56,777 nt of DNA, taken from contig JBGSIZ010000197.1 in assembly GCA_041742255.1 (NCBI GenBank), positions 1-56,777 of the forward strand, in the 5' to 3' direction. Under the pieces are notes generated by a model that was given only the letters and a program-made list of their open reading frames with translations, did not search any database and was not told where the DNA came from. Origin of the DNA: Marivivens sp. GTDB taxonomy: Bacteria > Pseudomonadota > Alphaproteobacteria > Rhodobacterales > Rhodobacteraceae. A program made the translations under genes and the position numbers. Every line of letters begins with the position of its first letter. Within the stretch, counting starts at the first letter, position 1. This document shows, in pieces, positions 12,454 through 36,731 of the stretch.

Positions 12454-12478
12454 GGCACTGACTACCGGTCATGCCGTT
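12454..12478 (+). promoter_or_regulatory. candidate ECF-type promoter (GGCAC-N16-CGTT) upstream of the ECF sigma gene
   Basis: ggcac (12454-12458), 16-nt spacer, cgtt (12475-12478), about 105 nt upstream of the ATG at 12584. One mismatch to the GGAAC-N16/17-CGTT pattern known for alphaproteobacterial EcfG-type sigma factors. Purely a pattern match. Confidence 0.25.
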
Positions 12479-12583
12479 GTTCGTTACCCTTCATTCACCC
12501 GAATTTCCGTTTGTTTATCGGCCTTTTGTTGCGCGTCGACCAGACGACACGCGGGCCCAGACCCAAGAAACGAGGCATGCGCC

Positions 12584-14147: not shown

Positions 14148-15467
14148 ATGGCCAGTATTTCAGTGTTCGGGATTGGATATGTCGGGGTTGTCTCCGCCGC
14201 CTGTTTGGCGCGGGACGGTCACGATGTTATTGCCGTAGATGTCGAACCCACACGCGTTGACGTTATCAATTCCGGCAAATCTCCGATTGTTGAAAATGGT
14301 CTTGATGCGCTTATTGCGGATGCAGTGTCCGCCAATCTGTTGACTGCGACACTTGATGCGCAAGACGCCGTGATGCGGACCGATGCCAGTTTCGTATGTG
14401 TGGGCACGCCCAGCAACCCGGATGGGTCGGTTGGCCTCGCGTATATTACCAATGTGTGCGACATAATTGGCCGCGCGATTGCCGCAAAACAGTCGTATCA
14501 TTCGGTCATCATCCGTTCGACAATCGTGCCCGCCACGATGGAAACGGTGTGTATTCCGGCACTTGAAGCCGCATCAGGCCTGAAGGCCGGCGTGGATTTC
14601 GGCGTTGGCTACTACCCGGAATTCCTGCGCGAAAGCACCGCAATCGAGGATTACGATAATCCCGGTTTGATTGTCTTTGGGGCGTTGGATCAACCCACGT
14701 TTGCAATACTGAACCTGCTCAACAAGGATATGCCTTGCGTGACCCATGAGGTTGATCTGCGCACGGCCGAGATGGTGAAATACACGTCCAACACCTGGCG
14801 GGCGGTCAAGGTGACCTTTGCCAACGAAATCGGCAATATCGCCAAAGCGTGCGGGCTGGACGGTCAGTTGGTGATGAAACTGCTGTGTTCGGACGACAAG
14901 GTGAATATATCGTCGCATTTCATGCGGCCCGGCTTTGCATTTGGCGGGTCTTGTTTGCCCAAGGATGTCCGCGCGCTGCAGCAATTGGCCCGCGCCCGCG
15001 ACGTCGAGGCGCCATTGATGTCGGCGGTTCTGAAGGCGAACGACGCCCAGATCGATCGCGCGGCCCGGATGGTGACAAACACCGGCAAGACGATCGTCGG
15101 TCTGGTTGGTATCAGTTTCAAGCCCGGCACCGACGATCTGCGCGAAAGCCCCTTGGCCGAGCTGGCGTCCCGGCTGATCGCCGAGGGTCACAATGTGCAG
15201 GTGTATGACCCGAATGTCAGCACCGGCTATGCCCATGATCTGGCCGGAACGGGCCGGGGCAACGATGTGGTTCCCGATCTGCGCGACCGCATGGTTCCCA
15301 CCATTGATGCCCTGATTGAGGGGTCGGATATGATCCTTGTCGGCAACAGCTATGACGAGGCCGTCGGACCACTGCGCAAGGCGATGAAAGATCATCCGAT
15401 GGTCGATCTGACACGGGTTCAGCCGGGCCTCGTGTCTGGTGGATCCTATCAGGGCATCTGCTGGTAA
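14148..15467 (+). CDS. algD: GDP-mannose 6-dehydrogenase
   Basis: ISVFGIGYVGVVSAACLARDGHDVIAVDV...GKSPIVENGL...FVCVGTP...GVGYYPEFLRESTAIEDYD...MRPGFAFGGSCLPKDVRAL...FKPGTDDLRESP. The C-terminal ...YQGICW matches the GICW end I recall for Pseudomonas AlgD. Confidence 0.9.
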   Translation: MASISVFGIGYVGVVSAACLARDGHDVIAVDVEPTRVDVINSGKSPIVENGLDALIADAVSANLLTATLDAQDAVMRTDASFVCVGTPSNPDGSVGLAYITNVCDIIGRAIAAKQSYHSVIIRSTIVPATMETVCIPALEAASGLKAGVDFGVGYYPEFLRESTAIEDYDNPGLIVFGALDQPTFAILNLLNKDMPCVTHEVDLRTAEMVKYTSNTWRAVKVTFANEIGNIAKACGLDGQLVMKLLCSDDKVNISSHFMRPGFAFGGSCLPKDVRALQQLARARDVEAPLMSAVLKANDAQIDRAARMVTNTGKTIVGLVGISFKPGTDDLRESPLAELASRLIAEGHNVQVYDPNVSTGYAHDLAGTGRGNDVVPDLRDRMVPTIDALIEGSDMILVGNSYDEAVGPLRKAMKDHPMVDLTRVQPGLVSGGSYQGICW

Positions 15468-15468
15468 C

Positions 15469-16956
15469 ATGCAGGTTCTGGGGCACATATTTTACCTTCT
15501 GGTTCTGGGCATTCTGGTGTTCAGCCTGCCCACGGGCGGGCTGGACGGGTCCGAAGGCGTGATCCTTGTGTTAGGCGTCCTCGGCCTGTGGCGGTATTCG
15601 TGGGCCGCGATCAATTTCAGCCGGGCGGCCTGGTATCAGATGATTGCCTATCCTCGGCTGCGAAAGCGCGCCGATGTCGCCTATGCGGATCGCGCGGCCC
15701 CGGCACATGCCTATTTTCTGGTGACCAGTTACAAGATTGACCCCGATGTCACGACACGGGTCTATCGGTCGATCTTTGATGCGGCGGCGGCGTCGGTGGG
15801 CGGTGCCACGGTGGTGGCGTCGATCGTGGACGGGGCCGATCTGCGGCTCGTGCGGTCCGTCTTTGCGATGATGCGCACCGATATGACCGGTGTCCGCCTG
15901 ATCGTGGATCAGGTGCCCGGCACGGGTAAGCGGGATGCGTTGGCCAAGGCGCTGCGGATCATCACCGGGCAGGCCCCGACCTGGCGCGATATTGTTGTTT
16001 TCGTAGATGGCGACAGCTGTGTGCCCATCGACATTGTGGCCCGGTCTGCACCCTATTTCTGCGATCCCGGAGTTGGCGCACTTACCACAGATGAAAGCGT
16101 CGAGATCACTGATGCCCCGCTGTTCCGCGATTGGTTTGCCCTGCGGTTCACCCAACGGCAGATGATGATGTCGTCGATGGGTCTGGGGCAGCGCGTATTG
16201 ACGTTGACGGGCCGAATGTCCGTATTCCGCGCCGATCTGGCCACCGATCCGGGCTTTATCCGGCAAGTGCAGAGCGATTATCTGGACCATTGGCGTCTGG
16301 GCCGCGTCAATTTTCTGACCGGCGATGATAAATCAACGTGGTTCTGGCTGCTTCGAAACGGGTATCGGATGCTGTATCTGCCGGATGTGCAGACCGTGTC
16401 GATGGAACGTCAGCCGCTGCCGGGGTTCGTCAATTCTGCCGTTACATTGATGGTGCGGTGGTTTGGCAACATGATGCGGACCAATGGCCGTGCGCTGGCG
16501 CTGCCTGCGTCCCGGATCGGCGTCTTTACCTGGTGGTCGCTGCTGGATCAGCGCATTTCGATCTGGACGACGTTGGCCGGCCCCTTGGGCGTGCTGTTGA
16601 CCGCCCTGTTCGTCAGTCCTGCAATCCTGCCCGCCTACATCGCGTGGCTGATGGCCACCCGGTATGTGTTTTGCATCGCGCTGTCGTTGTTCCGGGGGGG
16701 CGGGTTCCCGATCTCCTATCCGTTCCTTTTGTATTTTGGCCAGATCGTAGGGGCCGCTGTCAAAAGTTTCGTGATGTTTCGGCTGGATCGCCAGCGGTGG
16801 ACCCGGCAGGCGGCCCCCTCTGGTTCGGCGTCTGGACCCGCAATCGCGCGTCGGTCTGTCGGTGCGTGGCTGGGTCAATTCGGGTCGTCCTATGTCCACA
16901 TCCTCACGCTGGGTTGGCTCACGCTGGGCGTGATGTTCCTGACCGGCCTCCTCTAG
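15469..16956 (+). CDS. alg8: alginate (polymannuronate) synthase, GT2 catalytic subunit
   Basis: ORF 15439..16956 trimmed to the ATG at 15469, 1 nt after the algD TAA. Matches recalled Alg8 blocks: PGTGKRDAL, VLTLTGRMSVFRA, HWRLGRVNFLTGDDKSTWF, MVRWFGNMMR, FRLDRQRWTRQ. Multiple TM helices. Confidence 0.88.
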   Translation: MQVLGHIFYLLVLGILVFSLPTGGLDGSEGVILVLGVLGLWRYSWAAINFSRAAWYQMIAYPRLRKRADVAYADRAAPAHAYFLVTSYKIDPDVTTRVYRSIFDAAAASVGGATVVASIVDGADLRLVRSVFAMMRTDMTGVRLIVDQVPGTGKRDALAKALRIITGQAPTWRDIVVFVDGDSCVPIDIVARSAPYFCDPGVGALTTDESVEITDAPLFRDWFALRFTQRQMMMSSMGLGQRVLTLTGRMSVFRADLATDPGFIRQVQSDYLDHWRLGRVNFLTGDDKSTWFWLLRNGYRMLYLPDVQTVSMERQPLPGFVNSAVTLMVRWFGNMMRTNGRALALPASRIGVFTWWSLLDQRISIWTTLAGPLGVLLTALFVSPAILPAYIAWLMATRYVFCIALSLFRGGGFPISYPFLLYFGQIVGAAVKSFVMFRLDRQRWTRQAAPSGSASGPAIARRSVGAWLGQFGSSYVHILTLGWLTLGVMFLTGLL

Positions 16957-16959
16957 TTC

Positions 16960-18066
16960 ATGTCTGAAAAAGGTATTCCCATGGAAAACGCTATCGTCGC
17001 CAATACGGCGCATCAGCCACTCAGTTTGCCGGACGGCAACGACCATGCGATCGTCGATCTGCCGTTCATCGCCGTCATTGACGGGCGGCAGTTTCGCGGG
17101 CGGGGCTTGTCGTTGGTGGCGGCCTATGTCGCGGGGTTGATGGACCCGGTGACCTTGAACGAAACCCGCATTGTGCGTCTGGTGTTTCAGTTTGATGGGT
17201 TTTCTGTGTCTTTGGTTCTGGATGCCGAAATCCGTGAAGGCGGGGCCGGACCCGGTGATGTGGCCCTGATTTTCAGCCGCCCCACCGGAGAGCATCTGCC
17301 GCAGCTGCGCCATGTCATCAACGCCTATATCGCAGGCGATCTGGTGGGCGTGGGACAGACGATTGCCGTGGCCGGGACCGCCGCACCCAAGGCGCAAAAG
17401 GCCCCCGGTGTGCCCGAGCGCAGGTTTTCCCCGCGCCGGGTGGGTGGTGCATTGGGTCTGGGGCTGTTGTCGCTGGCATTGGTGTCGATCGCCGGCACGC
17501 TTGCCTATCAGCGGTTGTTCGTGACGTTGGTTCCCGGTCTTGGGACGGTCGTGTCAACCGGCGAGGTGATGCGGTCCACCACCACCGGCCAGATTGTGTT
17601 TCTGGATCTGGCGGCGGGGCAGGGCGATGTCGCGGTTGCCATCCAATCCGCATCCGGTGACGTCCAAAGCCTTGTACTGCCGTGTGATTGCACGGTGACG
17701 GCGCTGGGCCTGCGCGAGGGGTCCACGGTGTTGATCGGTGAACCGGTTCTGACCCTTGGGTCCGATACCGACCAAGTGTTGGTGTCTGCCACTGTTCCCT
17801 CCGACGTGCTGTTTGATCTGTCCAGCGCCGCGCGTATCCAACTGACCTTGCCGGGGGGGCAGACGGTCATGGCCCGGATCGAGCCGTCCCAACCCGTGCG
17901 CGTGGGCACACAAGATCCGATGATCCTATTGCGCCCCGATGTTCCGCTTGGCGCGGACCGGGTCGGTGACCCGGCACAAATCCGTATCCTGCAAAACTGG
18001 GGTGGACTGACCACATGGTCCGCCGCCCTGCGCACCCGCATTTCCACCTTGTTCGAGAAAGCCTGA
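16960..18066 (+). CDS. alg44: Alg44-like co-polymerase (PilZ-like N-domain + TM + membrane-fusion-like periplasmic domain)
   Basis: LVFQFDGFSVSLVLDAEI and LRHVINAYIAGDLVGVGQTI align with recalled Pseudomonas Alg44 (LLFQVDSISFSLEVEFQV; LRYLITSYLAGEVIGVGDML). A TM segment (GALGLGLLSLALVSIAGTLAY) and a C-terminal beta-rich domain follow. The canonical PilZ c-di-GMP motifs appear degenerate (see findings). Confidence 0.75.
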   Translation: MSEKGIPMENAIVANTAHQPLSLPDGNDHAIVDLPFIAVIDGRQFRGRGLSLVAAYVAGLMDPVTLNETRIVRLVFQFDGFSVSLVLDAEIREGGAGPGDVALIFSRPTGEHLPQLRHVINAYIAGDLVGVGQTIAVAGTAAPKAQKAPGVPERRFSPRRVGGALGLGLLSLALVSIAGTLAYQRLFVTLVPGLGTVVSTGEVMRSTTTGQIVFLDLAAGQGDVAVAIQSASGDVQSLVLPCDCTVTALGLREGSTVLIGEPVLTLGSDTDQVLVSATVPSDVLFDLSSAARIQLTLPGGQTVMARIEPSQPVRVGTQDPMILLRPDVPLGADRVGDPAQIRILQNWGGLTTWSAALRTRISTLFEKA

Positions 18067-18069
18067 CCG

Positions 18070-19506
18070 ATGAAAACCATTTATCCTTTGATCTTGTGTG
18101 GTGGCATGGGTTCCCGTTTGTGGCCGATGTCGCGGATCGACCAGCCCAAGCAATTCCAGCCGACCAACGGCAAGGGCAGTCTGACCTATTTTCAGACCAC
18201 CGTGCAGCGCCATCAGGGCCCGATGTTTCATGACCCGATCATCGTCACGAATGCCGCACAGGCCGATCTGGTCGGGCAACAATTGACAGAAATTCAGGCC
18301 ACCGGCCGCATCATCGGTGAACCCGTCGGGCGCAACACCGGGCCTGCCGTTCTGGCGGCTGCGTTGTCGATCCTGCGCGATGATCCGGATGCCATCCTGT
18401 TGGTTGTGCCCTCGGATCACATAATATCGGGCGATTTGAACCGCACTGTGGCCCAGATGGTGGCCGCCGCCAACGCGGGCCAGATCATCACCTTTGGCAT
18501 CCCTCCCGGGTATGCCGAGGCTGGATATGGCTATATCATCGACGGTGGTGAGGTCGAAAACTATGACGGCCTGCATACCGTCGCGCAGTTCATCGAAAAG
18601 CCCCCCGTCGAAGAGGCGCAACGCCTGATTGATCAAGGTACCGCCTATTGGTCGTCCGGGATCAGTCTGTTTCGCGCCGATGTCATCCGCGCTGCGTTCG
18701 AAGCCTATGAACCGCAGACATTTGCCGCAGTGGCCGCAGCCGTGGCCGATGCCGCGACCACGCCAAACGGGATCACCTTGAACGAGGACGCGTTCCGGGA
18801 CGCCCGCAACGAGCCGACCGAACGGTTGATTTTTGAACGTAGCCCTGCCATTGCGCTGGCCCCGCTGAATGTCCGGTGGGACGATGTGGGCGCATGGGCC
18901 GCTGTTTATGACGTCAACACGAAGACCGGCGACGGAAATGTCACCAACGGCGATGTGATCGCGCTCGACACCACCAATTCGTTGATCCGAAGCGATGGCC
19001 GGTTGGTCGTTGTCATTGGAATGAACGACGTGATCGTCGTGGATACCAAAGACGCGCTGTTGGTGACCGACCGCAAGCACGCCCAACAGGTCAAGGTCGT
19101 GGTGGAAAAGCTGAAATCAGGCGGCAGACGCGAAGTCGTCAGCCACCCGTTCCGGAACCATGCATGGGGCGGCATCGAGGCGTTGGCTACCGATCCCGAT
19201 TACCGGGTCGATATCCTGACCTTGCTGCCCGGATCCTCCATGCAGATCAATGGCCACGGCACGGGTGCCAGTTTCCTGTCGGTGGTGTCGGGGCACGCGA
19301 CCTATCTCGAGGATCGTAAGGGCAATGATAACACCTTGGCCCTTGGCAGTATGCTCACGATCCACAAGGATACCGAGCTGACCCTGACCAACACCGCCGA
19401 TTTCGACCTTCAGGCGATCCTGTTGTCCACGACGCCATCGGTGACAGCGACCTCGGGTCATCTGGTGTATCCCGCGCGTCCGCTTCGGTCGGTCGCGAAT
19501 GGCTAA
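18070..19506 (+). CDS. algA: mannose-1-phosphate guanylyltransferase (AlgA/ManC type, with divergent C-terminal cupin/PMI domain)
   Basis: YPLILCGGMGSRLWPMSRIDQPKQF, GEPVGRNTGPAV, VVPSDHII, GYGYI, FIEKP and WDDVGAW are GMP-domain signatures. The C-terminal cupin is recognisable (HAWGG...LLPGSSMQ...VVSGHA) but lacks the usual H-H-x-R-x-E-H-W metal ligands. Confidence 0.82.
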   Translation: MKTIYPLILCGGMGSRLWPMSRIDQPKQFQPTNGKGSLTYFQTTVQRHQGPMFHDPIIVTNAAQADLVGQQLTEIQATGRIIGEPVGRNTGPAVLAAALSILRDDPDAILLVVPSDHIISGDLNRTVAQMVAAANAGQIITFGIPPGYAEAGYGYIIDGGEVENYDGLHTVAQFIEKPPVEEAQRLIDQGTAYWSSGISLFRADVIRAAFEAYEPQTFAAVAAAVADAATTPNGITLNEDAFRDARNEPTERLIFERSPAIALAPLNVRWDDVGAWAAVYDVNTKTGDGNVTNGDVIALDTTNSLIRSDGRLVVVIGMNDVIVVDTKDALLVTDRKHAQQVKVVVEKLKSGGRREVVSHPFRNHAWGGIEALATDPDYRVDILTLLPGSSMQINGHGTGASFLSVVSGHATYLEDRKGNDNTLALGSMLTIHKDTELTLTNTADFDLQAILLSTTPSVTATSGHLVYPARPLRSVANG

Positions 19507-20998
19507 GGTGTTGTATGCTCTGATGATGTGTGCGGCGGTCTGGCCCGTTGGGGCTGCCGCACAGCAGATGGATTATCTTGCCAGCCAACGGCTGGAGGGG
19601 GCCGTTGTCCAACTGCAGGATCCGCTGCTGGCGGGTGGGTTGGCGACCGAAGCGGCCAAGGTCATGGTCAGTGTCGGCTTGCCTTGGCCTGCTTCTGCTG
19701 GCGCGGTCATTCCCCACCCGGACGCTGTGCCGTCCGAGTTCACTGTTGTCCCCGGTGCGGTTGTCGAACTGGTCGATATCCGGCTGTTGCTGACCCAGAT
19801 TGCCATCCAGTCCGGCGCGCGGGATCACGCCGCGCTGGTGCGCGCCCAAGGGCTGCGGGATCACGATGTGATCCTGTTGCGCGGCGGCTTTGCGACGCTG
19901 GCCGATTTGTGGACCATGTCCCGCGACACGCCCGCGCAGGGCTTTGTGACCCAAACGGACGACGGGATCATCCTGACCCGGCCATTGGCCATTTGGTCGG
20001 ATGCCGGTCTGACGTTGGGTGCCGCGGATCAGCTTGTTCTGGATCGGTCCAGTGGGACGTTCATCGCCAACTTTGGCTGGTTGGACATCGCGGGTGGCAC
20101 GATTGCCGGCAACGATACCGACAACACGGCCGAGCCGCCGTTTCGGCCCTTTGTCATGACTGCCGGCCAAGGCAGCCTGACCGCGGAGGCCGCCGCGTTT
20201 CAAACCCTGGGTTTTGGCACGTCCGCCGTCTTTGGTGGTCTGTCTGTGGTCAACAATGGGTTGGTGCCCTCTCTGCGCGCGTCTGCTGTCACGCACAGCA
20301 CTGTGCGCGACGTTGTCACGATTGGCCTTATCGGGACGACAGGTGCGATGCTGTCTGGCAACTGGATCAAGGGTGCCACTGGCCCCGCCATCCTTGTGTC
20401 CAACAGCGCCCAAACGACGGTCGCGGACAACCGGTTCACCGCCCTGCAGGGGCCGCAATCCATCCGCGTGACGGTTGGTTCCGTGGAAACCCGGATCAGC
20501 GGCAATCTGATGACGGGGACCGCCCGCCTGGGTATTTTGATCGACCGGGGCAGCCACGATGTGACGATCGCGCAAAATCTGGTCGTGGGAAGTGTGACAA
20601 CCGGAATTGGCATTGATCGCGCGACCTGCGTGACCATCGCGGGCAATCTTGTCGCCAACAATGGTGGCACGGGCATCAGTCTGACCGATACAGATGAAAC
20701 GGCTGTCACTGACAATGCCGTGTTGTTCAATCAGGGGTCTGGTATCGTGGTCCGCGCGCAGGGGCCAGCGGCCAGTGTCAGCATCTCGGGCAATGTGCTG
20801 ATGGGCAACCGTGACGGTTTGCGGGGTGCCACGGTGGGCGCCGTTGTGTTGGGACACAACGACCTGAGCGGTCAGATGCCGCGCATCTTTTCCGGCGATT
20901 TTGCCCCGTTGACGGTAAACTGGTTGCGCACGCGCGGCGACGTCGTGGCGGCGTCCGAACCGTCTGTGATGCCCTGCTTCGGTCAGGGAGAAGGCTGA
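19499..20998 (+). CDS. algG: AlgG-like periplasmic right-handed beta-helix protein (mannuronan C5-epimerase family, catalytic motif not conserved)
   Basis: Signal peptide (MAKVLYALMMCAAVWPVGAAAQQ). N-terminal VILLRGGFATLADL...LAIWSDAGLTL resembles AlgG. Parallel beta-helix repeats are present (IAQNLVVGSVTTGIGIDRATCVTIAGNLVANNGGTGISLTDTDETAVTDNAVLFNQGSGIVV). The start overlaps the algA stop by 8 nt. Confidence 0.7.
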   Translation: MAKVLYALMMCAAVWPVGAAAQQMDYLASQRLEGAVVQLQDPLLAGGLATEAAKVMVSVGLPWPASAGAVIPHPDAVPSEFTVVPGAVVELVDIRLLLTQIAIQSGARDHAALVRAQGLRDHDVILLRGGFATLADLWTMSRDTPAQGFVTQTDDGIILTRPLAIWSDAGLTLGAADQLVLDRSSGTFIANFGWLDIAGGTIAGNDTDNTAEPPFRPFVMTAGQGSLTAEAAAFQTLGFGTSAVFGGLSVVNNGLVPSLRASAVTHSTVRDVVTIGLIGTTGAMLSGNWIKGATGPAILVSNSAQTTVADNRFTALQGPQSIRVTVGSVETRISGNLMTGTARLGILIDRGSHDVTIAQNLVVGSVTTGIGIDRATCVTIAGNLVANNGGTGISLTDTDETAVTDNAVLFNQGSGIVVRAQGPAASVSISGNVLMGNRDGLRGATVGAVVLGHNDLSGQMPRIFSGDFAPLTVNWLRTRGDVVAASEPSVMPCFGQGEG

Positions 20999-22431
20999 TG
21001 GTTTTCTCGTCCGAGACCTTCTTGTTCCTGTTTTTGCCGCTGTTCCTTGCGGTTTATTACCTGACGCCGGTTCGGTTCCGGTCGGTCACGATCCTGATCG
21101 GATCCTATGCCTTTTACGGCTGGTGGCGTCTGGATTTTCTGGGCCTTTTGTTTGTCACCACGCTGTGGACCTATTTCTTTGGTCGCCGGATTGGTGCAGC
21201 GACCGATGCGCGGACGGCCAAGATTAATCTAGTGTTTGGATTGCTGGGCTGTCTGGCGGTTCTGGGCGTGTTCAAATACCTGAATTTCTTTATCGACAGC
21301 TTTGCCACGCTGTGGGGCACCGATGCGGATGGATTGGGTGTCCATTGGCGTCTGATCTTGCCGATCGGAGTGTCGTTTTACGTCTTTCAGGCGGTCAGCT
21401 ATCTGATTGATGTGTATCGCAAGGATGCCGTGGCGACCGCGGGGTTCTTTGACTTTGCGGCCTTTATCGCCCTGTTTCCACAATTGATCGCGGGTCCGAT
21501 CCTGCGGTTCAAGGATTTGGCCGGGCAGTTTGCGCAGCGCGACCATTCGGTTGAACTGTTTGTGCAGGGCATGACCATCTTTGCGATTGGTTTGGCGAAA
21601 AAGGTGTTGCTGGCCGACACTGTGGCCCCTTTGGCCAATCTGGCGTTCGACACTCCCGATCCCAGCGCCGCGCTCGCGTGGCTTGGGTCGATTGCCTACA
21701 TGATCCAGCTTTACTTTGACTTTTCCGGCTACAGCGACATGGCGATCGGTCTTGGGTTGATGATGGGGTTCCACTTTATCCAGAATTTCGACACGCCCTA
21801 TATCAGCCGGTCGATCACGGAATTCTGGCGTCGCTGGCACATCAGCCTGTCGGTATGGCTGCGCGATTACCTGTATATTCCGTTGGGTGGGAACCGCAAA
21901 GGCGTGGGTCGGACCTATGTCAATCTGATGCTTGTGATGGTTCTGGGTGGGCTGTGGCACGGGGCAAACTGGACCTTTGTTCTGTGGGGCCTGTGGCACG
22001 GCGGGTGGCTTGCCATTGAACGCGCCACGGGCCGGGCCAAGGGCACCGACCTGTTCGCGCTCGGTTCCACCTTGATGATCGTGCTGATGGGTTGGGTGAT
22101 GTTCCGTGCGGCCGACGTGGCGCAGGCCATGGGGGTGTATCGCGGCATGCTGGGCTTGAATACTGCGGCAGCCGGTTCCGTGATGGGCCCCGCAAGCGCG
22201 CTTGGCATCACAAACGAAAGCCTTGTCTTTTTGGCAATCGGTATTGCGATTGCAGCCTTTGAACCGCGTCTCAATCGCGTTGCTGCGACCCGCCTGCAAC
22301 CCGGCCAGACCGGGCACCTGACCATGCTGAACGCGCTGGCACCTTCGGTGCTGATGGTTGGGCTGGGCACGGTCACTGTCATGAAACTCGCGGAACAGAG
22401 CTTTTCTCCGTTCCTGTATTTCCAGTTCTAG
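20998..22431 (+). CDS. algI: alginate O-acetyltransferase, MBOAT family
   Basis: MVFSSETFLFLFLPLFL..., multiple TM helices, and the MBOAT core FWRRWHISLSVWLRDYLYIPLGGNRKG...GLWHGANW. The ATG shares one nt with the algG TGA (TGATG). Confidence 0.9.
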   Translation: MVFSSETFLFLFLPLFLAVYYLTPVRFRSVTILIGSYAFYGWWRLDFLGLLFVTTLWTYFFGRRIGAATDARTAKINLVFGLLGCLAVLGVFKYLNFFIDSFATLWGTDADGLGVHWRLILPIGVSFYVFQAVSYLIDVYRKDAVATAGFFDFAAFIALFPQLIAGPILRFKDLAGQFAQRDHSVELFVQGMTIFAIGLAKKVLLADTVAPLANLAFDTPDPSAALAWLGSIAYMIQLYFDFSGYSDMAIGLGLMMGFHFIQNFDTPYISRSITEFWRRWHISLSVWLRDYLYIPLGGNRKGVGRTYVNLMLVMVLGGLWHGANWTFVLWGLWHGGWLAIERATGRAKGTDLFALGSTLMIVLMGWVMFRAADVAQAMGVYRGMLGLNTAAAGSVMGPASALGITNESLVFLAIGIAIAAFEPRLNRVAATRLQPGQTGHLTMLNALAPSVLMVGLGTVTVMKLAEQSFSPFLYFQF

Positions 22432-22439
22432 GGGGTCTG

Positions 22440-23546
22440 ATGACCAGAATTCTGTCCATGGCCCGCCTTGCGCTGCCAACTGTGTTCTTTGGTTACGCGG
22501 TCTTTGCCAATCTTGTGATTGTGACCGGACCACATCCAGACATCGGATTGCCCGCAAAGGGTGTGCTGTCGGGCGGTTTGACGATCAATCTGGACAGTTT
22601 GTACAAAGACAGGCTGCCCCATATGGACCCGTCGTCCAGTTTAGTGGGGGCCGCACGCTATGCCATGTTGAACGAGGCCCGGCATGGGGCCGTTGTCGGG
22701 CAATCCGGGTGGCTGTTCAGCGCGGAGGAGGTCCGGCCGCTGCCCACCCCGGATCAATGGGACCGGGCCATTGCGACGGTTCTGGACCTTGAGGCACAGA
22801 TCGTGCGTGGTGGTGCCGTCCTGATTGTTGTCCCGTTGCCGGCCAAGATCGACGTCGCCCGGTCCCGCGGGGCCGATGCGGCCATGGCGGATGTCATGGC
22901 AGGCCTTTATGCCGATTTTGCTCGGAGTCTGACCGCCGAGGGCATTCCGGTTGTGACAGCCCGTGCTGAACTCCTTGCGTCTGAAACGCCTGCCTTTTTT
23001 GCCACGGATACGCATTGGACCCAGCACGGCGCCGATGTGGTGGCACAGGCGATTGCGGCATCGGGCACGATTTCGCCGGGGCGGTTGATCTATGACCGAG
23101 TGGCCCAATCGCCGACGGCATTCACCGGCGATCTGGTCCGTTTTGTAACGGCGGCGGCGATGGCCCCCGGCCTTGGCCTGATGCCTGAAACAGTCCGACC
23201 CGTGGTGCAGACCCCCGTGAGCGCGAGTGTTGATATTTTTGGCGGCGCGGACCGGGACATCGTTCTGGTGGGCACCAGCTATAGCGCCAATGCCGATTGG
23301 GGATTTGCCGACGCTCTGATGTATCGACTGGGCCGCGATGTTGTCAGCGTGGCCCAGGAGGGTCTGGGCCCGGTGCAACCGATGCGCGACTATCTTGCCA
23401 GCCCGGACTATCATGCGGCCCCCCCGACTGTCGTGATCTGGGAAATCCCGGTCCGGTATCTGACCGATCCGGCGGTGTGGCTGCACACCGATGCGCCAAC
23501 CCCCGAGATATCCGCATCCCTGCACAAGGAAAACGCTGATGGATAA
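22440..23546 (+). CDS. algJ: alginate O-acetyltransferase AlgJ-like (membrane-anchored SGNH-like)
   Basis: N-terminal anchor (LALPTVFFGYAVFANLVIV). FFATDTHWTQHGADVVAQAI (D-x-H of the AlgJ/AlgX triad) and LVGTSYS (Ser). Confidence 0.8.
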   Translation: MTRILSMARLALPTVFFGYAVFANLVIVTGPHPDIGLPAKGVLSGGLTINLDSLYKDRLPHMDPSSSLVGAARYAMLNEARHGAVVGQSGWLFSAEEVRPLPTPDQWDRAIATVLDLEAQIVRGGAVLIVVPLPAKIDVARSRGADAAMADVMAGLYADFARSLTAEGIPVVTARAELLASETPAFFATDTHWTQHGADVVAQAIAASGTISPGRLIYDRVAQSPTAFTGDLVRFVTAAAMAPGLGLMPETVRPVVQTPVSASVDIFGGADRDIVLVGTSYSANADWGFADALMYRLGRDVVSVAQEGLGPVQPMRDYLASPDYHAAPPTVVIWEIPVRYLTDPAVWLHTDAPTPEISASLHKENADG

Positions 23547-24300
23547 GTCACTGGCCGTGGTTTTCAGCGCCGTGGTGTTCGCATCTGCGGCGGCGGCGGG
23601 GCCGATGCCACCCGGATGGATGCCCCCGTCGAGCGTCGTGCAGATCGAGTTCATTTTTGACAACGCCGTCCGCCGCACGAACGACCTCCCGACTGCAGGA
23701 TTGCGCGCGGCCCGGCGTCAGATGATTGGTGGCGGCAGTATTAGCCTTGGCAATTTGCAGGCCTTGGCCGATGCAGGCGATGGTTTGGCCGCATTTCGAT
23801 ATGCCAAGATACTGCAAGAGCGCGGGATCGCCGACACGACGGGCGCCGCCGCCCATTACTACTCCATCGCGGCCTATACCGGACGGGCCTTTGCCGTACC
23901 GCCCTTGGCCCGTTTGTTGCGCGACGAGGGGGCGAATTACAGCAACAGCCGACTGACGCAGGCGCTCAATGCCATGACCGTGCAGGCGATCAGCGGGAAT
24001 CCAGTTGCTGCGACGTTGCTTGGGCAATTGTATGCGGACGGTGTGCCGTTCGGGCGCGATCTGGTGTTGGCGCAGACCTATCTTGGGCTGGGCGAGGGTG
24101 CGGGCACGCCGCCCGCCATTCTGCAACTGGGTGTCGCGTTGATGTCGGATCCTGCGGACATCGCCGCGGGCCATATTGGTGCGCGGGCCGCCCTGACCCA
24201 AGCCGCCGCCAGTGACGATCTGTCCGTCCGGGTCACCGCAGAAAACCTGTTGCGCCTGATCGATCTGCCGATCTCCCCCCAAACCGAGGTTCTCCAATGA
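23539..24300 (+). CDS. secreted Sel1-like repeat (SLR/TPR-like) protein, 253 aa
   Basis: ORF 23491..24300 trimmed to the ATG at 23539, which overlaps the algJ stop by 8 nt. Signal peptide MDKSLAVVFSAVVFASAAAAG. Sel1-type repeats (LADAGDGLAAFRYAKIL...AAHYYSIAAYTG...GNPVAATLLGQLYADGVPFGRDLVLAQTYL). Possible AlgK-like role is inference only. Confidence 0.6.
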   Translation: MDKSLAVVFSAVVFASAAAAGPMPPGWMPPSSVVQIEFIFDNAVRRTNDLPTAGLRAARRQMIGGGSISLGNLQALADAGDGLAAFRYAKILQERGIADTTGAAAHYYSIAAYTGRAFAVPPLARLLRDEGANYSNSRLTQALNAMTVQAISGNPVAATLLGQLYADGVPFGRDLVLAQTYLGLGEGAGTPPAILQLGVALMSDPADIAAGHIGARAALTQAAASDDLSVRVTAENLLRLIDLPISPQTEVLQ

Positions 24301-25622
24301 TCGTTTCTTCACGCCGCGCTGCGCTGGTCCTCGCGATGATGTGCGGTACATCGGTTACAGCACAAACGTCCGAGTATCGCTGTGGCCAACTGGACCTGGC
24401 TTCGGCCCTGCCTTCCATCGAAGGGCGCAACGGTGTCTTTTACCGGGTTCTTGCCGATTTGCGGATGCGGCACCCGATGGAAGAAGCGGCGATGCAGCAA
24501 TTGGCGGACTTGTCTGCCGCACTGGCAGCAGGTGGCACCACCCTGATATACGTCACGGTTCCGACCAAAAGTCAGGCCATGCCGCAGTTTCTGCCGCCCG
24601 CCGCCGCCGACTACAGCTTTGACAGTGCGACTGCCGTTCTGGTGTATGATGACATCATCGCCCGATTGTCGGACCATGGCGTGTTGGCCCCGGATATTCT
24701 GGCGGCTTTGTCATCGGCACCCGAGGACGTGCTGCCGTTCTTTCAGGCCGATTTTCACTGGACCTCTGATGGTGCCCGGTTAGCTGCCGCCGCGATTGCC
24801 AGCGTCATCAAGGCACAGCCGGAATACGGCGAGATGACCGTTTCGCAATACCAGACCGTTGCCATTGAACAGACGACGGCGTTTTCGACCATGCGCCGCA
24901 CGTTGCAGACATTCTGCAAAGACGAATTGCCCCGTGTCGAGGATGTGGCCCATGTGACCAGCGTGGTGGCGGGCGATACTGCAGTCGTGGCAGATATTTT
25001 TGCAGGCGACGATGATCCGGCCCAGATCGTGTTGGTCGGCACGTCGTTTTCAGATTCGCCGCTTGGAAATTTCGCCGGTTTCCTGTCCGAATATTCCGGT
25101 CTGGATGTTGTCAATTATGCGGTTTCCGGCGGCAATCAGTTTGGCGCAATGACATCCTATCTGACCTCCCGGGATTTTGCCCAAAGCCCGCCACGGTTCC
25201 TGATCTGGGAAAATCCGGTCTATAGCAATCTGGCCCAATATGGCCCCGATCCGATGGATGAACTGATCGCCGCCGCCGGGCAAACCTGTTCTGCCCCGCT
25301 GCCGATTGTGCAATCGGATGGCAATAGCCTGACCGCTGATCTGACCGGGTTGACGATTGGTCGGGGGGACGTGATCCGCGCCGATCTGGGAACGGACGGG
25401 CCACGGACGGCCGCGTTTTCCTTGACCACCGCAACCGGCATCATCCGCAACGCGACTATGATCCGAAGCGACCGGATGCTGGCCTCTGGCCAATTCTACA
25501 AACCGCTCGGCAGTATCTGGCATCCAGATCTGACCGCCGTGACCGTCACCTTTGACAGGCCGGTTTCCGATCTGTCGACCCTTTCCCTTTGCCAAATGTC
25601 CCGAAAGGATACCTCCGGATGA
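24297..25622 (+). CDS. algX: AlgX-like periplasmic SGNH-like acetyltransferase with C-terminal beta-rich (CBM-like) domain
   Basis: Signal peptide (RRAALVLAMMCGTSVTAQT). FFQADFHWTSDGARLAAAAIA and LVGTSFS, the same D-x-H / Ser signatures as AlgJ/AlgX. About 120 extra C-terminal residues. ATGA overlap with the upstream gene. Confidence 0.7.
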   Translation: MIVSSRRAALVLAMMCGTSVTAQTSEYRCGQLDLASALPSIEGRNGVFYRVLADLRMRHPMEEAAMQQLADLSAALAAGGTTLIYVTVPTKSQAMPQFLPPAAADYSFDSATAVLVYDDIIARLSDHGVLAPDILAALSSAPEDVLPFFQADFHWTSDGARLAAAAIASVIKAQPEYGEMTVSQYQTVAIEQTTAFSTMRRTLQTFCKDELPRVEDVAHVTSVVAGDTAVVADIFAGDDDPAQIVLVGTSFSDSPLGNFAGFLSEYSGLDVVNYAVSGGNQFGAMTSYLTSRDFAQSPPRFLIWENPVYSNLAQYGPDPMDELIAAAGQTCSAPLPIVQSDGNSLTADLTGLTIGRGDVIRADLGTDGPRTAAFSLTTATGIIRNATMIRSDRMLASGQFYKPLGSIWHPDLTAVTVTFDRPVSDLSTLSLCQMSRKDTSG

Positions 25623-26242
25623 CCCGATTTTCAAAACTGCTCGTGTGCGCCCTTGTGCTGAATGCTGGCCACGCGCTGGCGCAGGATGCCCAACTCTACG
25701 AAGATCCGGCAGACCCGAATGCGTCGTTTGTGCGGATCGTGTCGCCGGGCGAAACCCTTGCGGTGGTGGGGCTGAACACCTTTGACGCGGTGCAGGATGG
25801 CGTGACGCCTTATGTGACGATGACCGCCGGGCCGATCTCGGTTGCGGTGGGCGATCTGACCGCCGACGGGGATATTCCGCCCGCGACCTTCTACAGCTTT
25901 GTCGTGGGGTCCGATGGGACGCTGCATTTGTTGCAGGACCAGATCACAAACAGCCCGGCCAAGGCTGATCTGGTGTTCTACAACCTGTCCGATCTTGCGT
26001 CGGTGGACCTGTTTGTGCCTTCGGTCGATGCGATGGCGCTGGAGGATATTCTTCAGAACACATCGCGTCAGGTGTCGCTTAAGGCGCCATTGATCCTTGA
26101 TTTTGAAATCCGGGACGGCGCGACAGTCCTGGCCAGTTTGCCCGCGATCGAAATGCAGCGCCGGGCCGGCGTGACCGTCGTCCTGAGCGGCAGCGCGGGC
26201 GACTATGTCGCCACCAGCAGCGAAAATTTCTATTCCAACTGA
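25619..26242 (+). CDS. algF: AlgF-like alginate O-acetylation protein
   Basis: ORF 25589..26242 trimmed to the ATG at 25619 (ATGA overlap with the algX stop). Signal peptide MTRFSKLLVCALVLNAGHALAQ, then LYEDPADPNASFVRIV..., resembling the recalled AlgF N-terminus (ALYGP..P.GSAFVRAYN). Size is about 207 aa and the position is next to algI/J/X. Confidence 0.6.
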   Translation: MTRFSKLLVCALVLNAGHALAQDAQLYEDPADPNASFVRIVSPGETLAVVGLNTFDAVQDGVTPYVTMTAGPISVAVGDLTADGDIPPATFYSFVVGSDGTLHLLQDQITNSPAKADLVFYNLSDLASVDLFVPSVDAMALEDILQNTSRQVSLKAPLILDFEIRDGATVLASLPAIEMQRRAGVTVVLSGSAGDYVATSSENFYSN

Positions 26243-26263
26243 CCCGCGAAAGGGCATACCCCC

Positions 26264-29038
26264 ATGACACATTTCATGACCAACATTTTGACCGTGAACC
26301 GTTCCGGGGGTAGCCTGGCAGCGGGTCTTGTGCTGTCGCTTGTGGTGGCCCATCCGGGCGGCGTGGGGGCGCAAACCTTGCCGCTTGTTTTTGAGCCGCC
26401 GACCATGGAGGTCTCGCAGGTTTGCGTGCCCCGATTGTCCGACGCCGATCTGGCGGCGCAGTGGCAGGCGTGGGATGGTCGCACCCTGCCGGATCAGGAT
26501 ATCGGGCTTATCAATCGCGACATGCGCCGATTGGCGGAACTGGACGCGCTGAAATGGGACGTCACCATCCAAAAGGTGATTTCTCTTTTGCCGCGCTTGT
26601 CGCCGAGTTTTACCGAAGACCATGTGGCCCTTGCCCAAATCGAACAGATGATTGCGCTGGGGCAATTGCAGGAATTGAAAACCTTGGGGTTGGTCCAGAA
26701 ATTGCTGGACCGGGGCGAAGAAAATTCCCCACGGATGTTGAATGCCCTGGCCGGGTTTCTGACCGAAGGTGTCGGGATTGACCGTGACGTTCAGCGTGCC
26801 GATGAATTCCTGATGTCCGCAGGATATGGCGGCAATGCCGACGCCTTGCTGACGTTGTCCCGCCGGACGGTTGCGGGAAATGCGCCGCCCGCTTGGGATG
26901 TGAACCCGCAACTGGCGGTGACGATGGCCTTTGGATCGCTGCTGGGTCAGATTGATCCCTTGATCTGCGACAGGATTGCCCGGATTGCCCGCGAATTCAC
27001 CAGTGGCGACGTGGTCAGTGTGGATCACGATCTGGCGGTCCGCTGGTATCGGTTGGCCGCCGATCTGGGCGATCCGATTGCCGCGTGGCGCGTGGCCGAA
27101 TATGAAATGGAGTCCGAACTGGTGACCAAGGACAATGATGTCCTGATCACCTATCTGGCCAAGGCCGCCGCCGGAAATCTGCCCTATGCCCAAGTTGCGT
27201 TGGGTCGCGTGTATGAAGGTGGGGCATTGGTCCCCACCGATTTGCAGCAGGCCAGCATCATGTATCAGGCCGCCGCCGCAGGTGGTGATCGTGCAGGTCT
27301 GATCCGGTTGTCCGGGTTTCTGGAGGCACAATTGCCCGCCGATCCGGCACTGCTCCCCGACTTTTTGGCGACGCTGGACAGGCTTGCGGCGTTGGAGGAC
27401 ACGCCTGCGTGGGTTTATACCAAACAAGCCGCCCATATTCTGCGGGTGCAGGGGCGGTGGGCCGGACAAGACGCCGCCCGGGTGTTGCTGGAACAGGGGG
27501 CCGCGATGGATGACCCGACGGCCATCATGATGTTGGCCCAGATCGACCTTGGCACCGCCCGGACCGATGCGGAGTTTTATGCCGTGGTCGATCGCTTGAT
27601 CCATGCCGTCACGACATTGGGCGAAGCGGCCCCGACCACCGATCTACAGGCCGCATTCCTGTGCAAGGCCCCGGCTGCGCCCCGGTTAGATGAGGCCGCC
27701 TATTGGGCACAGGCCGAGGCCGCCATCGGGTCATCCTCGGTCGAATTCAGCAATCTGGCGTTGATGAAACTTGCGGCTGATCCGGATCCCCTTGCGATGG
27801 CTGCGTTGCAGACCCAGGCCCTGTATGGTCGCGCGACGCCATTGGCCAATCTGGTGACGGTTCTGGAAAACAACGGGGCCCCGGCATCAGAACTGGCGTT
27901 CTGGACCCAATATGCAACGCAGTTTGATAATGTCGAAACCGCATTGGCCGCGCTGGCCCTTGATACTGCAGCAACGCCGGATGCGCGCGCCGATGCGTTG
28001 ATCCGGTTCCGCGCGGCTGTGGTGTCAGGCGATACCAATGCCCCGCTCAAGCTCGCGCAGGCCTTGTTGATGGACGGTGCGACAAACGCGCAGGCGGAAG
28101 CCGCGGTGTTGTTGGATGGGCTCGCCCGGACCGGCAATGGCGAGGCGATGATGCTTTTGCAACAGGCGGACCCGGTAACCTATCCGACACGCCGGGCGGC
28201 GTTTGACGCCTTCGAGGCCGAGATTGAGGCGCGCGGCGACTTTTGGGCCATGATGCTTGCCATGCCATTTCTTGCCGATGCCGACCGCCGCGACATCTAT
28301 GCCGCCCGGGCCATCACCGCGATGCAATGTGCGTTCCCCGAAGCCGTGGCGTTTGCCACCGTTCAGAATGAGGTTGGCAATGCCACCGAAGCCCAACGTT
28401 GGCTGCGGATTGCCACAGCGTTGGCGGAAGCGCAGTCTTGGCAAACCGTGCAACTTGCCGATACCTATCGCGCCCTTTTGGGCAGCGACGGGGACGCTAC
28501 TGCCTTGGCCCTGTATGAACAGGCCTATGCGGCGGGCAACCGGACGGCTGTGCAACGGTTGATCCGCATCTATGGGGATCCGGCAAAGGCGGGCTATGAC
28601 CAAGCCCGGATTGTAACGCTGTATGTCGATCTGGTGGGGCTGAGCGACGCCGATCATATTCCTGCCGTCCTGAGCGATTTGTCCCGCAAAGACCCGGCAT
28701 TGCGCACCGCGATCGAGGCCAAACTTGATCTTGATGCGCTGTATGCACAGGCAGCAGAGGCCGGAAATCCCGAGGCGATGCGCGAACATGCGCGCCGGTT
28801 GCGGGCGGTTGCCATCACGCGCACCGAAATCGACGTGTCGACCAATTGGTTGGTTCTGGCGTCTGAAGGCGGCGATGTGCCGGCCATGGTGATGTTGGCG
28901 CAAGCCTATTCGATGGGAGTTGGCGTGCCGGCCTCACTCGAAAATGCGCGGGGCTGGTTGCAAAAGGCCGCCGATGCCGGTGATCCGGCGGCCATTGAAA
29001 TGGTCAAACTCTTTGCTGTTGATGCGGGGTCAAATTGA
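26264..29038 (+). CDS. large (924 aa) secreted Sel1-like/TPR-like repeat protein
   Basis: N-terminal hydrophobic signal-like segment (SLAAGLVLSLVVAHPGGVGAQT). Many Sel1-type units along the whole length (HDLAVRWYRLAADLGDPIAAWRVAEY; AQVALGRVYEGGALVPTDLQQASIMYQAAAAGGDRAGL; AMVMLAQAYSMGVGVPASLENARGWLQKAADAGDPAAI). All-helical appearance with no beta-barrel-like region. Confidence 0.65.
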   Translation: MTHFMTNILTVNRSGGSLAAGLVLSLVVAHPGGVGAQTLPLVFEPPTMEVSQVCVPRLSDADLAAQWQAWDGRTLPDQDIGLINRDMRRLAELDALKWDVTIQKVISLLPRLSPSFTEDHVALAQIEQMIALGQLQELKTLGLVQKLLDRGEENSPRMLNALAGFLTEGVGIDRDVQRADEFLMSAGYGGNADALLTLSRRTVAGNAPPAWDVNPQLAVTMAFGSLLGQIDPLICDRIARIAREFTSGDVVSVDHDLAVRWYRLAADLGDPIAAWRVAEYEMESELVTKDNDVLITYLAKAAAGNLPYAQVALGRVYEGGALVPTDLQQASIMYQAAAAGGDRAGLIRLSGFLEAQLPADPALLPDFLATLDRLAALEDTPAWVYTKQAAHILRVQGRWAGQDAARVLLEQGAAMDDPTAIMMLAQIDLGTARTDAEFYAVVDRLIHAVTTLGEAAPTTDLQAAFLCKAPAAPRLDEAAYWAQAEAAIGSSSVEFSNLALMKLAADPDPLAMAALQTQALYGRATPLANLVTVLENNGAPASELAFWTQYATQFDNVETALAALALDTAATPDARADALIRFRAAVVSGDTNAPLKLAQALLMDGATNAQAEAAVLLDGLARTGNGEAMMLLQQADPVTYPTRRAAFDAFEAEIEARGDFWAMMLAMPFLADADRRDIYAARAITAMQCAFPEAVAFATVQNEVGNATEAQRWLRIATALAEAQSWQTVQLADTYRALLGSDGDATALALYEQAYAAGNRTAVQRLIRIYGDPAKAGYDQARIVTLYVDLVGLSDADHIPAVLSDLSRKDPALRTAIEAKLDLDALYAQAAEAGNPEAMREHARRLRAVAITRTEIDVSTNWLVLASEGGDVPAMVMLAQAYSMGVGVPASLENARGWLQKAADAGDPAAIEMVKLFAVDAGSN

Positions 29039-30099
29039 TGTATCGCCAGATGTTTTTGTCCTTGGCCGTGGTTCTGACCACGGCCCACCCCTTGCGGGCG
29101 CAAGACGCCGCGCCCCAGGAACCCGCGCTCCAAGACCCTGCGCCAGAACCGTTTGTTTGCGTCCAGACGCCCGAACCGGTCATAAGCCTGAGCCATGGCA
29201 GCCGCTACAGCAGCAGTGACAGCAGCCGGACGGAGTTTGACGAGGCGTCAAATGAAGATGTGAATGCCCAACTCAAACCCGTGGATCAATTCATCACGGA
29301 TCTGGCCAAGGCCGCAAACCGGGCCGTATCCACACCTGCGGATCGCCAGATTGCCGCCGATTGCGTTTTGACGGGCCTTGCCGTTTGGGCCGGGGCGGAT
29401 GCGCTCAGCGATCTGGCCACGATGAACGCCCAGCTTTCTGCGCCGTCGCGGATTGCCGGGCTGGCGTTTGCCTATGCGCAAATCGACCCCTTTCTGGAGC
29501 CGTCAGAGGACCGGGACATTGTGCAGGCGTGGCTGTCTGACCGGGCGCGGGACACGATCACCTATTTCGACTCTGATGCACCGCCCAAGGCCAGCCAGAA
29601 CAATCTGCGGGCGTGGGCGGCTCTGGCAGTGGCACGGGTCGGTGTCACCGTGGATGACGCAGCCATGATCGACTGGGCCGCAGCATCTGTTGAACTGGTT
29701 GCCTGTCAGGCAGCACCAGACGGCAGCCTGCCGCAGGAAATGATCCGGAAAAACCTCGCCCTGCATTACCAATTGCACGCGGTGACGCCGCTTGTCGTCA
29801 CGGCGGCCTTGCTGCAGCAAAAGGGGTTCGACCTGTTTCGGGCCTGCGACAATGCCATCCACAGAACCGTTGATTTCAGCCTGGCCAGTTTTGAAGACCC
29901 CGCTGTGGTCGAGGATTTGACGGGTCATCCCCAAACCTATTTCGATGGAACAGAGACCTTGCGCGGGTTCGAGTTTGCGTGGGCACAGGCCTATCTGTCG
30001 ATCTTTTATGCGCCGCAACTTGCCGGGTTTGTTGAGCAATTCGGGGACCTTGCCAATTCCAAGATCGGTGGAAAGCAGGCGTTGATCTGGGGCGACTGA
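29035..30099 (+). CDS. algL: AlgL-like periplasmic polysaccharide lyase family 5 protein (His of the NNHSYW motif replaced)
   Basis: Signal peptide (MFLSLAVVLTTAHPLRAQ). NNLRAWAALAVARVGVTVDDAAMIDWAAASVE...DGSLPQEMIRKNLALHYQLHAVTPLVVTAALL is collinear with recalled Pseudomonas AlgL (NNHSYWAAWSV...LFDWAV...[24 protein letters not shown]). ATGA overlap with the upstream gene. Confidence 0.7.
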   Translation: MMYRQMFLSLAVVLTTAHPLRAQDAAPQEPALQDPAPEPFVCVQTPEPVISLSHGSRYSSSDSSRTEFDEASNEDVNAQLKPVDQFITDLAKAANRAVSTPADRQIAADCVLTGLAVWAGADALSDLATMNAQLSAPSRIAGLAFAYAQIDPFLEPSEDRDIVQAWLSDRARDTITYFDSDAPPKASQNNLRAWAALAVARVGVTVDDAAMIDWAAASVELVACQAAPDGSLPQEMIRKNLALHYQLHAVTPLVVTAALLQQKGFDLFRACDNAIHRTVDFSLASFEDPAVVEDLTGHPQTYFDGTETLRGFEFAWAQAYLSIFYAPQLAGFVEQFGDLANSKIGGKQALIWGD

Positions 30100-36696: not shown

Positions 36697-36731
36697 CGCC
36701 CGGTTTCTGACGTCCACTCACGATGACACGG

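Follow-up and report, generated by a model that had tools for sequence, protein, structure and literature searches.

A predicted alginate-type exopolysaccharide operon of Marivivens sp. with two Sel1-repeat proteins and no linked AlgK-AlgE pair

To our knowledge, work on alginate biosynthesis has been confined almost entirely to Pseudomonas and Azotobacter. The operons of Pseudomonas aeruginosa and Azotobacter vinelandii share the order algD-8-44-K-E-G-X-L-I-J-F-A. Putative alginate clusters in many other genomes were noted in a 2015 review (PMC4444821), and a 2020 survey (Bundalovic-Torma et al., PMC7112194) catalogued 'atypical' alginate operons that had lost algKE or modification genes. One such cluster, in Dinoroseobacter shibae DFL 12 (Rhodobacteraceae), comprises AlgD, AlgA, Alg8, AlgF, AlgI, AlgJ and AlgX (PMC7112194). 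Here we describe a differently ordered operon on a 56,777-nucleotide stretch of DNA from Marivivens sp. (assembly GCA_041742255.1, contig JBGSIZ010000197.1; hereafter the window). We interpret it, with somewhat more confidence than doubt, as the synthase-dependent machinery for alginate in a variant peculiar to one lineage, which is kept as a self-contained module in a subset of Paracoccaceae. A previous sequence-only reading of this DNA implied that such a system was new; that implication fails, since algKE-less alginate operons, one of them in Rhodobacteraceae, were catalogued in 2020 and putative clusters had been noted in 2015.

Layout and distribution of the operon

Twelve plus-strand open reading frames (ORFs), all intact, co-directional and translationally coupled, occupy positions 14148-30099 in the order algD-alg8-alg44-algA-algG-like-algI-algJ-small sel1-algX-algF-like-large sel1-algL-like (Table 1). 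With the most plausible starts, neighbouring genes are separated by gaps of 1, 3, 3, 8 and 21 nt or overlap by 8, 1, 8, 4, 4 and 1 nt; public gene calls place the start of the alg44-like gene at 16981. The sequence-only reading had described twelve tightly packed same-strand genes forming an alginate-type cluster in this order, and the ORF coordinates, junction lengths and family assignments bear it out.

We scanned one genome per GTDB species with conserved peptides of the AlgG-like family and found 17 loci, all in Rhodobacterales or Paracoccaceae. Carriers include Marivita lacus, Cypionkella, Frigidibacter, Tabrizicola, 'Rhodobacter' metagenome-assembled genomes, Yoonia sp. 67-2 and two Tropicimonas species. 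The 12-gene order recurs in all loci whose length allows a judgement, which amounts to at least 12 full-length loci in other genomes. Apart from a LuxR/GerE-type regulator gene 5' of algD in most of them, the flanks of these loci are unrelated, so the arrangement is not a product of chance. The comparison of the block across relatives that had been proposed for this DNA thus came out in favour of a conserved unit, its order kept in at least 12 Paracoccaceae genomes with differing flanks. A homologue of the LuxR/GerE-type protein lies immediately 5' of algD in L003, L004, L005, L007, L008, L013, L014 and L016, and we infer that it is likely the regulator of the operon. In the spacer between the two genes, a sigma-70-like match at 14045-14072 is the only plus-strand promoter-like site near the operon start and is a consensus match only. 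Genes for an extracytoplasmic function (ECF) sigma factor and a DUF892 protein (window 11901-13069) lie just 5' of the regulator; we rejected them as parts of the system because they are not kept beside the operon in other genomes. At the other end, a dihydrouridine synthase gene comes after the algL-like gene.

Variant clusters show which components travel together. The large Sel1-repeat protein (Sel1L) is present in L001-L017, L020 and L023 and is the constant partner of Alg8, Alg44, AlgG and AlgX in every variant. In Jannaschia pagri (L020, BPFH01000003.1), the cluster reads alg8-alg44-algG-like-algI-algJ-[722-aa protein]-algF-Sel1L and lacks algD, algA and algL. A second, more distant variant (L023:1782-13761, GCA_020357715.1) has eight genes, algD-8-44-A-G-X-Sel1L-L, with a Sel1L that is 26% identical; there is no algI, algJ, algF or small Sel1 gene in it, and neither the D-x-H nor the Ser motif survives in its AlgX. 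That a catalytically dead AlgX is kept beside Sel1L points to a structural role for that pair. A polysaccharide lyase family 5 (PL5) gene comes next after the Sel1L gene in a further relative as well, where identity has dropped to 25%, and we count the persistence of this linkage in favour of a conserved module. Overall, the Sel1L family comprises 120 representative clusters at E<=1e-30, about 80 of them full length.

One further related cluster (L022:1906-14721, GCA_036704275.1) consists mostly of gene fragments and includes an AlgX::Sel1L fusion call, P0390. We discounted this apparent fusion because most cluster genes on its contig are fragmented; the cluster itself probably reflects an error of sequencing or assembly, or else decay of the copy.

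Table 1. Predicted features of the Marivivens operon and its 5' region, in window coordinates.
Feature	Position	Strand	Evidence
LuxR/GerE-type regulator	13141..13872	+	PF00196 GerE E 2e-18; N-terminus degenerate, receiver-like
AT-rich 275-nt spacer before algD	13873..14147	+	sequence read
algD, GDP-mannose 6-dehydrogenase	14148..15467	+	1mfz 438 bits; TIGR03026 373 bits
alg8, putative GT2 polymannuronate synthase	15469..16956	+	PF13641, PF13632; ATG 1 base past algD stop
alg44-like co-polymerase	16960..18066	+	PilZ-fold domain, one transmembrane helix, periplasmic membrane-fusion domain
algA-like mannose-1-phosphate guanylyltransferase, degenerate isomerase cupin	18070..19506	+	PF00483, PF22640
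algG-like periplasmic beta-helix protein	19499..20998	+	profile vs AlgG 4nk8 E 1.2e-23
algI, MBOAT acetyl carrier	20998..22431	+	PF03062 E 3e-30
algJ, membrane-anchored SGNH-like acetyltransferase	22440..23546	+	PF16822 E 1.6e-54
small periplasmic Sel1-like repeat protein	23539..24300	+	~250 aa from ATG 23539; overlaps algX by 4 nt
algX, periplasmic SGNH acetyltransferase with C-terminal domain	24297..25622	+	PF16822 E 1e-49; 4knc 120 bits
algF-like periplasmic protein	25619..26242	+	PF11182 E 8e-8, 32.4 bits, cut-off 34.4
924-aa periplasmic Sel1/TPR solenoid (Sel1L)	26264..29038	+	PF08238; PDB Sel1 proteins E 4e-19
algL-like PL5 protein	29038..30099	+	PF05426 E 2.5e-29; AlgL 4ozw 80 bits

Catalytic motifs kept and lost across the clade

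Precursor supply is largely recognizable. AlgD aligns over its full length with the P. aeruginosa GDP-mannose 6-dehydrogenase 1mfz at 438 bits (E 3e-130), against 243 bits for the best UDP-glucose dehydrogenase. In the AlgA-like protein, Pfam detects the NTP_transferase and ManC beta-helix domains, and TIGR01479, aligned to positions 1-413 of 467, falls short of its cut-off of 373 bits with 367. Its C-terminus keeps the size of a cupin though no phosphomannose isomerase (PMI) cupin is matched in Pfam, and the metal-ligand stretch reads QINGHGTGA across the clade, with the PMI ligands replaced. A bifunctional AlgA is therefore not what the operon encodes: the guanylyltransferase part is present, and the protein is, judging by these features, probably a guanylyltransferase only, in which case the isomerase must be encoded elsewhere. 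Going by these predicted enzymes, GDP-mannuronate can be provided by AlgD together with the guanylyltransferase portion of AlgA.

The candidate polymerase keeps its catalytic signature. The motifs DGD, GDDKS and LMVRW, which we take to correspond to D188/D190 and D295/D296/K297 of Pseudomonas Alg8, are unchanged in 14 sequences. A PDB sequence search with this protein returned nothing and NCBIfam no naming match; the latter database has no model naming Alg8, Alg44, AlgJ, AlgX or AlgF. A different glycosyltransferase identity would open another reading, in which the product of the GT2 enzyme is not a mannuronate homopolymer and the accessory genes of alginate type have been co-opted, as in acetylated cellulose. 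The missing PDB and NCBIfam matches leave room for it, and an acetylation module co-opted for cellulose is on record (PMC7112194). We nonetheless hold it to be quite improbable, given that algD and the GDP-mannose pyrophosphorylase gene lie inside the operon in most variants and that a gene of the PL5 polyM-lyase family is linked to it.

The acetylation machinery is complete. The GGLWHG His of AlgI is kept in all full-length algI copies, TDTHW and GTSYS of AlgJ are invariant across the clade, and AlgX conserves (A/T)DFHW, which is ADFHW in the window copy, together with GTSFS. Homologues of the AlgF-like protein in L001, L002 and L020 carry a PF11182 match. The set thus combines the MBOAT His of AlgI, the D-x-H and Ser motifs of AlgJ and AlgX, and AlgF. 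The sequence-only reading had called the precursor, polymerase and acetylation signatures intact. For polymerase and acetylation this extends across the clade; for precursor supply it is right about AlgD and the guanylyltransferase and wrong about the mannose-6-phosphate isomerase cupin of AlgA, which is degenerate.

The Alg44-like protein shows a conserved fold with altered ligand motifs. Sequence matches were weak (HlyD_3 E 8e-4; Alg44 PilZ E ~0.7). An AlphaFold (AF2) model was built from 30 homologues (predicted local distance difference test, pLDDT, 79). Foldseek matched it to the Alg44 PilZ structures 4rt1, 4xrn and 4rt0 with TM-scores of 0.75-0.82 and root-mean-square deviations of 2.3-2.8 A, and matched the C-terminal part to the membrane-fusion proteins BesA, MexA, CusB and MacA. 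The model confirms an Alg44 architecture of PilZ domain, one transmembrane helix and membrane-fusion domain. Two motifs define cyclic di-GMP (c-di-GMP) binding, RxxxR and DxSxxG (PMC8461298). No RxxxR was found N-terminal to the PilZ barrel anywhere in the clade, and the DxSxxG position reads G-L-S-L-V-A, with Asp and Gly lost. These motifs suggest that the machine would be activated without canonical c-di-GMP binding to Alg44, and regulation may lean more on transcription through the adjacent LuxR-type protein.

A similar pattern marks the AlgG-like protein. Conservation within the family is good, and its many invariant residues include a beta-helix Arg. The DPHD motif of AlgG, whose His is the proposed proton abstractor (PMC4444821), aligns to the hydrophobic or small residues A-I-L-(V/I)-S in 22 of 22 members. 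Because the AlgG-like protein lacks DPHD, the polymer would be little epimerized or not at all, and the product is predicted to be O-acetylated beta-1,4-polymannuronate. The opposing view, that the operon makes true alginate containing guluronate, would have the AlgG-like protein epimerize with other catalytic residues or an unlinked secreted epimerase do so. The clear homology of the AlgG-like family to AlgG (E 1e-23) and a conservation that, invariant Arg included, exceeds the apparent need of a pure spacer speak for that view. The uniform loss of DPHD speaks against it, as does the structural, catalysis-independent role that AlgG also has in Pseudomonas, and we regard a guluronate-containing product as decidedly unlikely.

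In the AlgL-like protein, NNLRAW replaces the NNHSYW of AlgL, and the equivalent of His202 is Leu in every relative; the equivalents of Tyr256 and Arg249 are kept. Tyr256 is the catalytic acid/base of P. aeruginosa AlgL, and the H202A mutant of that enzyme is inactive in vitro and wild-type-like in vivo (PMC8829089). The protein may therefore be a weak or altered housekeeping lyase. Alterations of the c-di-GMP receptor, epimerase and lyase signatures had all been suggested from the window, and all three hold clade-wide: the PilZ fold is kept without its ligand motifs and DPHD is gone from the entire AlgG-like family. What does not stand is the His-to-Leu change in AlgL as proof of lost activity, in view of the in vivo behaviour of H202A.

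The clade-wide losses thus comprise AlgG DPHD, Alg44 RxxxR, the AlgL His202 equivalent and the AlgA PMI metal ligands. They are fixed in relatives that are 25-70% identical, in which the other catalytic motifs are invariant. The absence of several classical catalytic and ligand motifs is what one would expect of a decaying, non-functional remnant of a canonical alginate operon after loss of algK and algE. We consider decay very improbable here: none of the 12 translationally coupled ORFs is broken, relatives over that range of identity have the substitutions in common while other catalytic motifs do not vary, and the Sel1L family is large (120 representative clusters). Fixed substitutions, intact ORFs and a large Sel1L family form the pattern of purifying selection on a different design.

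Sel1-repeat proteins and outer-membrane export

Both Sel1 proteins consist of tandem alpha/alpha Sel1 repeats. The small one, a 269-aa ORF, had no Pfam match; a profile of 13 orthologues matched Sel1 structures at E 1.8e-21 (8sxq) and AlgK 7ula_B at E 1.4e-3. Sel1L matched 7ula_B at E 3e-5, behind generic Sel1 structures. Its AlphaFold model (35 sequences, pLDDT 88.4, predicted TM-score 0.75) shows ~48 helices in a single uninterrupted solenoid that lacks beta-strands, for which Foldseek returned Sel1-repeat and tetratricopeptide repeat (TPR) solenoids, with 6ok3, 4bwr and 8sxq at the top. AlgK itself is a TPR/Sel1-like repeat protein, and both Sel1 proteins are in its fold class without being AlgK orthologues. 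The claim that the operon lacks AlgK is correct as to orthology and overstated in that both proteins share the AlgK fold class. An outer-membrane TPR lipoprotein like AlgK is not encoded in the operon, and both window Sel1 proteins have signal peptidase I-type signal peptides without a lipobox Cys. Signal peptides are also carried by the periplasmic AlgG-like and AlgL-like proteins, and the operon encodes six secreted periplasmic proteins in all.

The small Sel1 protein of Tropicimonas marinistellae (L017:13815-14573) has, unlike the other orthologues, a lipobox-like L-A-A-C in its signal peptide and, from this sequence feature, may be a lipoprotein like AlgK.

Gene fusion connects the small Sel1 protein with AlgX. 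The 722-aa protein of Jannaschia pagri (L020:15053-17221) is a sel1s::algX fusion with the repeat domain N-terminal; identity is 35% (E 4e-11) in its small-Sel1 part and 40% in its AlgX part. The C-terminal repeats of AlgK bind the AlgX N-terminus in a crystal structure (PDB 7ULA; PMC9734138), a contact that the N-terminal position of Sel1s in the fusion matches. By analogy, we propose that the small Sel1 protein is an AlgX-binding AlgK analogue and would hold AlgX as AlgK does in Pseudomonas. More broadly, the AlgG-like protein, AlgX and the Sel1 proteins may form a periplasmic scaffold, with the 924-aa solenoid as its core and chaperone. We base this idea on the overlap of small sel1 with algX and their fusion in J. 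pagri, on the L023 variant, which does not acetylate and keeps a catalytically dead AlgX beside Sel1L, and on motif losses that are fixed in proteins that stay conserved down to 25-40% identity.

How the polymer leaves the cell is less apparent. No beta-barrel or porin family was detected in any large ORF of the 56.8-kb window, operon products included, and neither an AlgE barrel nor AlgK was found in any variant locus or in the flanks of related loci, a search that covered loci rather than whole genomes. An 18-strand AlgE beta-barrel is thus missing from operon, window and related-locus flanks alike, which upholds the earlier remark that none lies in or near the operon. A 304-aa ORF at 10573-11487 was considered as a barrel and rejected as a helical membrane protein. 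We surmise that the polymer crosses the outer membrane by a channel encoded elsewhere.

An alternative dispenses with an AlgE-like porin, dedicated or unlinked, and leaves the polymer periplasmic or cell-bound, or routes it otherwise, for example through the Alg44 membrane-fusion domain docked to a TolC-type channel. It draws on the absence of a barrel gene in three cluster architectures across many genomes, on the ~80 full-length Sel1L representatives (900-935 aa), none of which has extra barrel-sized sequence, and on the match of the Alg44-like C-terminal domain to the MexA, MacA and CusB adaptors. Yet Pseudomonas Alg44 has the same adaptor-like domain and works with AlgE, and all characterized Gram-negative synthase-dependent systems known to us use a dedicated barrel. 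An AlgE-like gene unlinked to the cluster would also account for the observations, and we find the porin-less route doubtful, at a level that makes it decidedly unlikely.

A bolder extension would see here a fourth Gram-negative synthase-dependent secretion design, with no dedicated TPR-porin or AlgK-AlgE pair and a PilZ domain that no longer reads c-di-GMP. In such a design the 924-aa solenoid, AlgX and the small Sel1 adaptor would pass acetylated polymannuronate on to an outer-membrane channel shared with other systems rather than dedicated to this one, possibly a TolC-type duct brought in by the Alg44 membrane-fusion domain. We think this unlikely, if worth spelling out.

Returning to a lineage-specific alginate-type machine as the preferred interpretation, several points weigh against it. 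The product assignment is a prediction from genes, and the GT2 enzyme is a putative Alg8 orthologue, identified by context and motifs. A protein that has lost its known catalytic residues need not be inactive, as the AlgL H202A mutant, functional in vivo, illustrates. The operon genes do not account at all for passage through the outer membrane. Both Sel1 proteins are at least as near to generic Sel1 proteins as to AlgK, which is also missing from the top 50 Foldseek matches of the 924-aa model; for this reason we rejected the 924-aa protein as an AlgK orthologue.

The clade nevertheless amounts to a natural experiment in which AlgG, AlgL and the Alg44 PilZ domain, as well as AlgX in one variant, lack classical catalytic or ligand residues and the proteins have been retained. 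Such losses provide comparative support for a scaffold role of AlgG, AlgL, the Alg44 PilZ domain and AlgX, and they raise the question of how a synthase-dependent polymer crosses the outer membrane without a linked porin. Cultured carriers, namely Marivita lacus, Yoonia sp. 67-2, Tropicimonas marinistellae and Jannaschia pagri, make these predictions testable. If made, a non-epimerized acetylated polymannuronate from non-pathogens could be a useful source of mannuronan.

Elsewhere in the window, the minus strand encodes a resistance-nodulation-division (RND) efflux pump (AcrB family, 1240 aa) and an HlyD-type adaptor at 52321-56726, with no outer-membrane factor gene beside them in the window. 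A 1466-aa protein at 5601-10001 (minus strand) combines CheB methylesterase, CheR methyltransferase, PAS and HisKA/HATPase domains, two receivers and a C-terminal LuxR/GerE helix-turn-helix. Two GT2_4/GT92-like glycosyltransferases (364 and 623 aa) and a sulfotransferase-domain protein at 41311-45124 (minus strand) hint at a sulfated glycan. An RTX-repeat protein (283 aa), a Big_6/LysM protein (413 aa) and an ABC exporter with a transmembrane domain (609 aa) at 45954-50623 may represent a type I secretion substrate and its exporter. Positions 35061-41308 hold a sarcosine oxidase-like set with a DAO-family beta subunit, a 1048-aa alpha subunit with a GCV_T domain and a SoxG gamma subunit.

Comparison with known systems

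In a literature search of one library, we found neither this arrangement of 12 genes nor the pair of Sel1 proteins, the fusion or the motif pattern of the clade described, and no experimental work on the cluster in Tabrizicola, Cypionkella, Paracoccaceae or D. shibae. The D. shibae cluster resembles the Marivivens operon in being a computationally predicted alginate-type cluster outside Pseudomonas without algK and algE. Compared by its description in the survey, it differs in being split into divergent units with no Alg44, AlgG or AlgL assigned. Twelve co-linear genes in this layout, the pair of Sel1 proteins and the motif losses of the clade are not described in that survey (PMC7112194).

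Long periplasmic helical-repeat solenoids that serve a synthase-dependent polysaccharide are likewise found in the TPR-porins BcsC, PgaA and PelB. Those proteins carry a C-terminal beta-barrel, whereas the 924-aa protein is all-alpha from end to end in its model and its relatives likewise by their length. A second parallel is the AlgK-AlgX complex (PDB 7ULA), in which a repeat solenoid binds the AlgX N-terminus; here the small sel1 gene overlaps algX or is fused to it. The small Sel1 protein has roughly half as many residues as AlgK, mostly lacks a lipobox and is no nearer in sequence to AlgK than to generic Sel1 proteins, and its binding to AlgX is proposed only.

Set beside the Pseudomonas and Azotobacter system, the Marivivens operon shares AlgD, a putative Alg8, the Alg44 architecture, the AlgA guanylyltransferase, an AlgG-family beta-helix, AlgI, AlgJ, AlgF and AlgX and a PL5 AlgL-family protein, all in one operon, and both systems have periplasmic components with signal peptides. 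In contrast, it has no AlgE barrel or AlgK orthologue and instead encodes two Sel1 proteins of ~250 and 924 aa. The DPHD, RxxxR, His202-equivalent and PMI metal sites of Pseudomonas and Azotobacter are absent from it, and a LuxR-type regulator gene lies upstream, in place of an AlgU/AlgR/AmrZ-controlled algD promoter. Measured against the defining features of alginate systems, the Marivivens operon thus lacks five (AlgK, AlgE, DPHD, the c-di-GMP motifs and the PMI domain) and retains the predicted core chemistry.

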